A stretch of 32,000 bases of DNA from Mucisphaera calidilacus (GTDB lineage Bacteria > Planctomycetota > Phycisphaerae > Phycisphaerales > Phycisphaeraceae). Made by a program: the position numbers and the translations under genes. Each line of letters begins with the position of its first letter. The first letter of the stretch is position 1. The stretch spans positions 3,210,001-3,242,000 of the forward strand of contig NZ_CP036280.1 of the NCBI RefSeq assembly GCF_007748075.1, read 5' to 3'. Under the pieces are notes generated by a model. The model made no database searches. It was not told the DNA's origin and worked only from the letters and a program-made list of their open reading frames with translations. Below, one piece after another: positions 20,813-22,067 of the stretch.

Positions 20813-20903
20813 GGAGAGGTGGCCGAGCGGCTGAAGGCAACGGTTTGCTAAATCGTCGTAGGGATTAACTTCCCTACCGCGGGTTCGAATCCCGCCCTCT
20901 CCG
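20813..20903 (+). tRNA. tRNA-Ser (anticodon GCT)
   Basis: Hand-folded class II cloverleaf:
- acceptor GGAGAGG/CCTCTCC
- 3-bp D-stem GCC/GGC with loop GAGCGGCTGAA
- anticodon arm ACGGT-TTGCTAA-ATCGT (GCT)
- long variable arm CGTAGGGATTAACTTCCCTACC
- T-arm GCGGG-TTCGAAT-CCCGC
- discriminator G

Length is 91 nt and CCA is not encoded. Confidence 0.93.
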
Positions 20904-20906
20904 CTT
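20891..20906 (+). repeat. Direct repeat copy 1 (attL-like): the last 13 nt of tRNA-Ser plus 3 nt
   Basis: CCCGCCCTCTCCGCTT. It matches 22052-22067 at 15 of 16 positions. Confidence 0.85.
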
Positions 20907-20968
20907 TTTCACGTCTCGCAGACTCGGCTTATTCGCATGCTACGGGGACTTAAAACATATTCAGCGGG

Positions 20969-21919
20969 ATGAGAACACGCAGCACTAAGCGAGATCCAAT
21001 GAGCCGCGATGAGATCATGACCGAATCCGTAGCCATGTACGACCTCAGGATCGACCGCTCTATCTATCAGACATACATCGATAGAGTATTAAATTACTCT
21101 GATGAAGTTGAGCTAGATTTGAATTATGTTCAAGTGCATTCTGCGGGCTTTGGCCGCAAGCCGGCAACACTGAAAAGGCAGATATCAAAACTATATAGTA
21201 TTGATATATTAGATTGTAAGTATATTTCTTTTTATTGTATGGAGAAAGGTTCTAAAGACTGGCTACATGGGGCTAACGCGTATATAGGATTACGCATTCA
21301 GCCAGAGCAGAATTCAATGACGGAATGTAATTTTTATATATCTAGAAGTAAATACAATAATGCGTCAAGTATGGTTGAAGGCATAGCGAATATATTAATA
21401 CCAATATTAAAGCCAACCTATGCTATAGCTTATAAGCGTAAAATTAGATATTTACCATCCTGGTATGCAGCAGGAGGTATTGCCGGACTGCCATTGCCTC
21501 ATAAATGTACGCCAGACCAAAAGCATGAGAGAGAACGTATTGAAGCTTTCAGTTTTGCTAGTGGCTCCCACCAGCTCTACAACCACGGCATCCTCCGCGA
21601 TATCTACCTAGATAATTTTCTAACCCATCACCAGCTCGACGCCGACGTGCTCGGCCAGGCCCTCCGGGACTGGATCACATCGAGCCCCGACCACGGCGTC
21701 CTCGAACACTACTGCCAAGACATCTACCGCTGGTCAGTCCCCGAAGACAAGATCCAACCGGTCACGGACGTCATGTGGAAAGCCGGCCGGCTCCTTACCC
21801 GTGACGAAGCCGAGGAATACGTCTACCAGCTCGGCCTCGCCGAACGCCCTGCCTGCCGACAGCCCGGCTGGCACCTCAAAGACCCCAGGCCTGTCCCAGG
21901 CGACCCGTCCACATGGTGA
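20969..21919 (+). CDS. Orphan hypothetical protein (up to 316 aa) with mosaic nucleotide composition; cargo of the tRNA-Ser islet
   Basis: The frame is open across about 470 nt of AT-rich DNA (Lys/Ile/Asn/Tyr-rich, e.g. KYISFYCMEKGSKDW, NFYISRSKYNNASSMVEGIANILIPILKPTYAIAYKRKIRYL). A long open frame in AT-rich DNA is strong evidence for coding. The same frame continues into GC-rich DNA with C-ending codons (LRDIYLDNFLTHHQLDADVLGQALRDWITSSPDHGVLEHYCQDIYRW). The start is uncertain (ATG at 20969, 20999, 21017 or 21035). I see no TM segment and no motif I recognise. Confidence 0.7.
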   Translation: MRTRSTKRDPMSRDEIMTESVAMYDLRIDRSIYQTYIDRVLNYSDEVELDLNYVQVHSAGFGRKPATLKRQISKLYSIDILDCKYISFYCMEKGSKDWLHGANAYIGLRIQPEQNSMTECNFYISRSKYNNASSMVEGIANILIPILKPTYAIAYKRKIRYLPSWYAAGGIAGLPLPHKCTPDQKHERERIEAFSFASGSHQLYNHGILRDIYLDNFLTHHQLDADVLGQALRDWITSSPDHGVLEHYCQDIYRWSVPEDKIQPVTDVMWKAGRLLTRDEAEEYVYQLGLAERPACRQPGWHLKDPRPVPGDPSTW

Positions 21920-22051
21920 GCAAGAGACGATCGCAGGATCAAGCTTGCTCGTGAAATGCGCCTGAACGGTCCATGCCGCCTCCCTCTGACAATCGTGTAG
22001 GCCTCGCCCGTCTGCGGCTGTCGCACCGACGTCGGGCACGACCGTAGACGA

Positions 22052-22067
22052 CCCGTCCTCTCCGCTT
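22052..22067 (+). repeat. Direct repeat copy 2 (attR-like)
   Basis: CCCGTCCTCTCCGCTT, with one mismatch to 20891-20906. Its last 2 nt overlap the aqpZ stop codon (TTA on plus strand, 22066-22068). Confidence 0.85.

Follow-up and report, generated by a model that had tools for sequence, protein, structure and literature searches.

Genomic islands and prophages that target tRNA genes sit at the 3' end of the tRNA, where a duplicated core restores the gene, and their content differs from relatives and is foreign in composition. A cis-mobilizable element (CIME) retains the attachment sites attL and attR without the integration and transfer genes (PMC5704250). Orphan immunity genes on acquired DNA have been described in the acquired interbacterial defence (AID) clusters of the Bacteroidales (bioRxiv 10.1101/471110) and in an immunity islet of Salmonella Typhi (PMC7400221). 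Among immunity proteins of solved structure, PA0821, also called TsiV, belongs to DUF3396 and gives immunity to the type VI secretion system effector TseV, which has a VRR-Nuc domain (PMC9635880, PMC10281587). Here we describe a locus that has something in common with each of these systems. It is a 1.16-kb islet bounded by direct repeats of the 3' end of tRNA-Ser(GCT), and it lies in a stretch of 32,000 nucleotides from the marine planctomycete Mucisphaera calidilacus (contig NZ_CP036280.1, positions 3,210,001 to 3,242,000), hereafter the window. We consider it likely that the islet is the remnant of a tyrosine-recombinase element that had integrated at the 3' end of tRNA-Ser(GCT) and has decayed to a CIME-like islet with both cores and one orphan immunity gene.

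The islet shares with CIMEs the direct repeats containing the 3' end of the target gene and the lack of an integrase and of transfer genes; with attL and attR kept and the genes for integration and transfer lacking, it has the structure by which a CIME is defined. Its site is also used by integrase-bearing elements, namely in a relative (contig L091) and in the proviruses L144 and L147. Unlike CIMEs, which were defined in Firmicutes beside known parental integrative and conjugative elements, the islet lies in a planctomycete, has no known parental element, measures only 1.16 kb and carries one gene. Like the islands and prophages that target tRNA genes, it stands at a tRNA 3' end with a duplicated core that restores the tRNA, differs in content from relatives and is in part foreign in composition; it differs from them in being far smaller, only partly foreign and without a recombinase, that is, without the integrase of its own that an autonomous island would carry. 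The family to which its gene belongs resembles TsiV/PA0821 (PMC9635880, 7DRG) in predicted fold and in the position of family genes directly downstream of a toxin gene. It is unlike TsiV in having no DUF3396 sequence match and in its partner toxins, which are RHS, PT-TG and PT-HINT proteins with a different C-terminal domain, and the window copy stands without a toxin. As in AID clusters and immunity islets, an immunity-type gene without its cognate toxin is found on horizontally acquired DNA at a recombinase target site; AID clusters are multi-gene, come from gut Bacteroidales and often have their own recombinase, whereas the islet holds a single gene of predicted immunity function in a marine planctomycete.

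The original prediction, made from the letters of the window, started from a 16-nucleotide repeat of the tRNA-Ser end at 20891-20906 and 22052-22067, and a scan of the window bore this out. At up to two mismatches and on both strands, CCCGTCCTCTCCGCTT at 22052-22067 was the sole other match to CCCGCCCTCTCCGCTT, from which it differs by one mismatch (15/16 identical), and the motif CCCG[CT]CCTCTCCGCTT covers both copies. The tRNA end is thus present as flanking direct repeats while the tRNA itself is intact. About 0.05 matches to the 16-mer are expected in the window at up to two mismatches, two matches occurred in none of 100 dinucleotide-preserving shuffles, and at up to one mismatch the 16-mer was confined to tRNA-Ser genes in 1.49 Mb of unrelated bacterial loci searched on both strands; the claim that such a match lies beyond chance in 32 kb therefore holds. 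Local alignment of the two repeat contexts aligned exactly these 16 nucleotides, and because the edges are sharp the repeat looks like a recombination core and not like a decayed duplication of the tRNA. Neither an extension of the repeat nor a further copy was found in the window, where the best candidate was a 12-mer with two mismatches at 26995; a partial copy, GACCCGTCC at 21902-21910, was at chance level and was set aside. The distal repeat does lie at the aqpZ stop, as had been proposed, and overlaps the stop codon by 2 nucleotides (complement of TTA, 22066-22068).

The interval between the repeats is 1.16 kb and holds one long open reading frame (ORF, 20969-21919), in which no recombinase domain was detected with Pfam, PHROGs, PADLOC or NCBIfam (Table 1). 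The islet has the lowest G+C content of the window, 0.49-0.51 against at least 0.57 elsewhere in 1-kb windows. It had been described as one ORF with no recombinase and the only strongly AT-rich DNA of the window. This description stands, except that the AT-rich DNA is a patch of about 0.5 kb inside the ORF (approximately 21055-21563) and not a property of the whole islet: G+C falls to 0.32-0.46 at about 21100-21600 against about 0.65 in the host, and the remainder of the islet is at 0.50-0.63. The G+C content at third codon positions (GC3) of the ORF follows the same course, being about 0.65 over the first 25 or so codons, about 0.25 at 21059-21510, 0.76 on average in the 3' third (from 21554) and about 0.8 at the 3' end, compared with 0.84-0.94 in host genes. 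The insert is therefore unlike the host in composition as a mosaic, foreign in part. The left arm (20907-20998) showed no similarity to relatives or to viral contigs.

Table 1. Features of the islet and its flanks, in window positions
Feature	Positions	Strand	Remarks
Carboxylesterase	19435-20199	-	Left flank; syntenic with tRNA-Ser in relatives
tRNA-Ser(GCT)	20813-20904	+	Intact; integration target; ARAGORN
Proximal direct repeat, putative attL core	20891-20906	+	CCCGCCCTCTCCGCTT; last 13-14 nucleotides of the tRNA plus CTT
Left arm	20907-20998	+	Non-coding, or 5' leader of the ORF with ATG 20999 as its start; about 50% G+C
Islet ORF	20969-21919	+	Sole long ORF; 316 amino acids from the first ATG; ATG 20999 best fits the N-terminal length of the family
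AT-rich patch in the ORF	21055-21563	+	Approximate boundaries; GC3 about 0.25; N-terminal domain and YAIAY core
Pan265_27070	21494-21919	+	The only part annotated publicly; 141 amino acids; internal TTG start (21494); GC-rich 3' third
Right arm	21920-22051	+	Non-coding; 63% G+C; small palindrome at 21934-21953
Distal direct repeat, putative attR core	22052-22067	+	CCCGTCCTCTCCGCTT; 15/16 identical, T for C at position 5
aqpZ (aquaporin Z)	22066-22782	-	Convergent; right flank, outside the islet; PF00230, 8.8e-52; full-length alignment to AqpZ homologues

The adjacency of the esterase and tRNA-Ser(GCT) is kept in the contigs of four relatives, and in each of them the likeness to the window ends at the tRNA. 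One metagenome contig (L081, esterase 72% identical in amino acid sequence) breaks off two bases before the 3' end of the tRNA, and a second metagenome contig (L092, 54%) exactly at that end, with the tRNA at positions 1-92; such ends would be expected if assemblies break where the downstream content is variable. In Mucisphaera sp. (L082, 55%) the tRNA is followed by unrelated genes, and in a metagenome-assembled genome of the Phycisphaeraceae (L091, 54%) by a truncated integrase and fragments of insertion sequences. The window tRNA-Ser is 98-99% identical to the copies in L081 and L082, and the L091 copy differs in the variable arm only. In both L082 and L091 the tRNA is again followed by CTT, and the likeness to the window stops 0-1 nucleotide after ...CTCTCCGCTT (window 20906-20907), so that non-syntenic DNA begins after 20906. 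Two further esterase homologues (P0023 and P0044) proved to be paralogous, non-syntenic loci and were discarded.

The L091 contig shows what else can occupy this tRNA end. There a tyrosine-recombinase ORF of which the C-terminal catalytic half is left (PF00589, 8e-10) continues into the tRNA with no intervening stop codon, and beside it (L091 6170-9740) lie a fragment of an IS3-type transposase, an rve transposase and a nucleotidyltransferase gene. What lies here is an integrative element in decay, at the site orthologous to that of the islet.

An exact scan of the viral collection with CCCGYCCTCTCCGCTT returned 32 loci, mostly chance matches inside ORFs. Two of the contigs with the 16-mer are the proviruses L147 and L144, in which tyrosine integrases (1e-13 and 1e-9, respectively) abut a tRNA-Ser(GCT) end with the same 16-mer. 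Use of this tRNA end and its 16-mer by integrases elsewhere is shown by these cases. Six related viral contigs without a tRNA (L119, L130, L133, L137, L145 and L135; G+C 0.62-0.65) also carry the 16-mer, and in the two examined, L119 and L135, about 60 nucleotides lie between it and the start of a tyrosine integrase downstream. An attP site is expected at such a distance upstream of an integrase, and the position of the 16-mer in these two contigs is attP-like. The site of this family (2440-2560 in L119) consists of a TGTACA-N4-TGTACA palindrome, then the 16 nucleotides, with C or T at position 5, and then the conserved GAAATCTGCCC. The identity between the viral sites and the tRNA is limited to 16 nucleotides, or 19 in L135, and the attP-like site of L135 has CCCGT, the variant at the distal copy in the window. 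A flank in another viral contig (L125) that was considered for its likeness to the attR/aqpZ junction turned out to be unrelated to aqpZ.

The gene within the islet is longer than the public annotation shows. P0121, the annotated protein of the locus, is 99% identical to ORF residues 176-316, and Pan265_27070 is a 141-amino-acid fragment of a full-length gene of about 300 amino acids; presumably a gene caller whose training genome had 65% G+C passed over the AT-rich 5' two-thirds. A word-indexed search with the ORF gave no match. An exhaustive HMMER search with the same query detected 396 representatives at E<=1e-3, the best of which are about 260 amino acids long and aligned over ORF residues 20-276, and the N-terminal half alone matched the family (E ~1e-10, 169 sequences). 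No relatives of the family were found in viral contigs. The family matches no Pfam, NCBIfam, PHROG or PADLOC model, and a search of PDB sequences with the family profile likewise gave no match. Pfam, including DUF3396, gave no match at all for the window ORF at E<=0.1 or for 10 family members at E<=0.01.

The function of the family is suggested by its gene neighbourhoods. In seven distinct metagenomic loci (L087/88, L095/96, L097, L098, L099, L101 and L103) the family gene lies directly downstream of a toxin ORF on the same strand, with a gap of 0-50 nucleotides. The upstream ORFs share one C-terminal domain of about 115 amino acids, 39-77% identical between loci, with the consensus ...STTPGH...YEY..LQRSWRTATGRVG...IPDVIGVRRNGVVDAWEVRS... 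(for instance at L087 ~6950-7298 and L095 ~5650-5998). The scaffolds that carry this domain differ, being a giant RHS/TcdB protein in L087, RHS in L095, PT-TG in L099 and PT-HINT in L103. The hallmark of polymorphic toxins is that a single toxin tip recurs on interchangeable delivery scaffolds with an immunity gene behind it, and it is because of these neighbourhoods behind toxin tips that we assign the family an immunity role. No Pfam model matches the shared domain; its PD...D.WE motif suggests a PD-(D/E)xK nuclease. In L090 and L102 the family gene is found 1.5 kb downstream of a pair formed by an RHS toxin and its own small immunity gene, as is typical of orphan cassettes. A different setting was observed for the family member P0272 (13 contigs), which adjoins a T5orf172/MUG113 protein and an Eco57I-type methyltransferase-restriction gene (L083 2610-7356, L084 436-5104); this neighbourhood is defence-island-like and unlike a toxin locus.

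The position downstream of a toxin is a property of the family and not of the window copy, which has a tRNA upstream. When a hidden Markov model (HMM) of the toxin domain was run against the six-frame translation of the 32-kb window with filters off, the best E value was 1.9, which is no match; the toxin domain is thus absent from the window and the Mucisphaera gene is an orphan, at least locally. A resemblance of 20907-20970 to the tail of the toxin domain, seen by eye, was not supported by the same unfiltered HMM search and was dropped. The islet gene would accordingly be an immunity gene by family membership, and its probable role is to shield the cell from a toxin of other bacteria.

A structural model pointed to the same kind of protein. 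AlphaFold2 (AF2), given an alignment of 22 sequences, produced a model of the islet protein with a mean predicted local distance difference test (pLDDT) score of 79.5 and a predicted template modelling (pTM) score of 0.77, compared with a pLDDT of only 36 from the single sequence. The best Foldseek match to this model was PA0821/TsiV (7DRG; E 1.8e-8, probability 1.00, template modelling scores 0.53/0.47 over 294 columns), and BPSL2088 (4RHO) came second. By this modelled structure the islet protein would have the same fold as a solved DUF3396 member, and the family is best called a new immunity family of an already known kind.

Both the homology and the confident structure run unbroken over the two composition boundaries, which shows that the ORF is one gene made of segments that differ in compositional origin, and not a misassembly or an insertion. 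The islet gene thus appears to be a recombinant in which an AT-rich middle segment lies between GC-richer ends, and recombination between divergent alleles, one AT-rich and one GC-rich, is the obvious candidate for the origin of the patch.

Taken as the remnant of an integrated element, the locus would have arisen by recombination across a 16-bp core that the element (as attP) had in common with the tRNA end (as attB). Integration would duplicate the core as attL (20891-20906) and attR (22052-22067) and leave the tRNA intact, and the recombinase and nearly everything else would have been lost later, leaving 1.16 kb and one gene. By convention attL is written B-O-P' and attR P-O-B'. The C/T difference at position 5 would fit this scheme if attP had carried T and strand exchange had taken place to the right of position 5, such that attL kept C and attR gained T; later mutation of the unconstrained distal copy is equally possible. 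The product of the orphan gene would bind and neutralise a nuclease-like C-terminal toxin domain delivered on RHS, PT-TG and PT-HINT scaffolds. That this repeat pair arose by integration and that an integrase was lost are steps we infer, as are the immunity function and the recombinant origin of the gene. The proposal that the repeats are attL and attR has in its favour that the sequences of relatives stop resembling the window at this tRNA end, that L091 carries an integrase there, that the proviruses L144 and L147 have integrases at the same tRNA end and that an attP-like core exists in viral contigs, and it stands as the best explanation; the empty junction of tRNA-Ser and aqpZ that had been foreseen for it was not found. 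So explained, the islet is a decayed tRNA-associated integrative element, which is of a known kind and an ordinary genome scar.

Several observations weigh against this explanation. No relative retrieved has an empty site in which tRNA-Ser is directly followed by aqpZ, and the aqpZ-pntAB right flank, the putative ancestral downstream arm, is not syntenic in any of them. A query of genome contigs with AqpZ gave 80 loci at 72-84% identity, none of them syntenic and none with an adjacent tRNA-Ser; the scan returned only non-syntenic loci because AqpZ is so conserved across phyla. The pre-insertion site that has to be assumed would bring the tRNA and the aqpZ stop together with almost nothing between them, which is unusual. 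No integrase or integrase fragment is present in the islet and none was detected across the 32-kb window by Pfam or by tblastn with the L091 integrase, the latter giving nothing convincing as a remnant. The arms of the islet resemble none of the integrase-bearing elements found. The viral attP-like family amounts to one independent occurrence among about 20 chance-level matches of the 16-mer, and we estimate a 10-20% chance that one such match adjoins an integrase by luck. Finally, some residues that are nearly invariant in the family are changed in the window protein (YAIAY for YGIGY and YLDNF for YPWNF), and judged by these residues it may be non-functional.

Among the alternatives, the one that survives best sees in the islet a miniature non-autonomous cassette, composed of attL, the immunity gene and attR, that is still mobile in trans, moved by a tyrosine recombinase with specificity for tRNA-Ser that another part of the genome or an incoming phage supplies. 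Such an element was one of the two origins first proposed, the other being the stump of a larger island. Both cores are kept at 15/16 with sharp edges, the ORF is open over 316 codons despite its foreign composition, integrases that apparently use exactly this core exist in viral contigs, and CIMEs are mobilised in cis by related elements (PMC5704250). These points are offset by the lack of a second copy of the gene or islet in any database searched, by the absence of a detected recombinase from the 32-kb window and by arms that match none of the candidate helper elements, and we regard a mobile cassette as unlikely. If it were mobile, excision would give the repaired junction ...GGTTCGAATCCCG[C/T]CCTCTCCGCTT-ACGCCTCATCGG and a circle whose junction would read ...CCGTAGACGA-CCCG[C/T]CCTCTCCGCTT-TTTCACGTCTCG.

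A bolder version would have live integrase-less immunity cassettes captured, excised and re-inserted in trans by tRNA-Ser-specific integrases of phages or islands, the L119/L135 family carrying the same core. We hold this for a long shot. If true, planctomycetes would possess a means, comparable to integrons, of acquiring defences against toxins and shuffling them, and the GC mosaic within the gene would record the shuffling of alleles between AT-rich and GC-rich donors.

It is also improbable, in our judgement, that the distal 16-mer matches the tRNA end by chance or for some unrelated reason, with no att scar at the locus and a gene that came by another route, for example by homologous or illegitimate recombination of an immunity cassette beside a tRNA hot spot. 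The match is only 16 nucleotides long and its core was chosen after the fact, imperfect repeats of 13-17 nucleotides are common in the interval, no empty site was found, and the viral collection contains the roughly 20 chance-level occurrences of the 16-mer already mentioned; the mosaic gene, moreover, shows that ordinary recombination has acted at the locus. An expectation of about 0.05 in the window even at up to two mismatches speaks against a coincidence, as does the failure to find the 16-mer outside tRNA-Ser at up to one mismatch in 3 Mb of control strands. The second copy follows the tRNA end at a distance of 1.16 kb and on the same strand, and together with the first it encloses the only low-GC stretch of the window and a gene not seen at this position in any relative retrieved; the same core also occurs at integrase-associated sites elsewhere. 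An assembly artefact, in which a contaminant or chimeric AT-rich segment was joined in, could be suspected from the abrupt change of G+C within one gene and from a public annotation that covers the GC-rich 3' part only, and it is scarcely credible, given that reading frame and family homology continue over both boundaries (residues 20-276), that the AF2 model is confident on both sides, that the source is a single contig of 3,486,541 bp and that a full-length family member in frame would not survive a misjoin.

Other features of the window were recorded along the way. The GC skew of the plus strand is very strong: it begins at +0.42 on the left, crosses zero at around 17 kb (the switch lying at about 16500-17500) and reaches -0.23 on the right, and the AT skew trends in the opposite direction. 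The sign of the GC skew is independent of gene orientation, since the genes at 2.3-4.5 kb are on the minus strand where the skew is positive and a giant gene at 26-32 kb is on the plus strand where it is negative; the change, which is graded and not stepwise, looks like that of a replication terminus. The giant ORF (26208-32000, plus strand) exceeds 1930 amino acids, runs past the end of the window and contains at least nine Calx-beta repeats together with beta-propeller repeats. Downstream of a tRNA-Val(GAC) gene (4479-4552), about 700 bp (4553-5260) have a lower G+C (0.54-0.59) and no high-GC3 ORF. Here a minus-strand ORF (4708-4971) reads toward tRNA-Val, and its VVTAWLGNSQAVAIEHDL ('VVTAWLGNS...EH') recalls the C-terminus of a tyrosine recombinase. 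As an integrase this ORF was rejected, since neither Pfam nor a BLASTP comparison with the L091 integrase yielded a match and no repeat of the tRNA-Val end was present.

The analysis of the islet corrects the public annotation of Pan265_27070 from 141 to about 300 amino acids and brings up a toxin-immunity pair for which the domain libraries have no model, namely a family of about 260 amino acids with a predicted TsiV-like fold and a C-terminal toxin domain of about 115 amino acids. The 16-bp core at tRNA-Ser(GCT) is defined and, together with the candidate attP family, directly testable. For the biology of the organism, the islet adds a marine planctomycete to the gut Bacteroidales and enterics to which the idea of acquired orphan immunity, here predicted from the family, has been applied.

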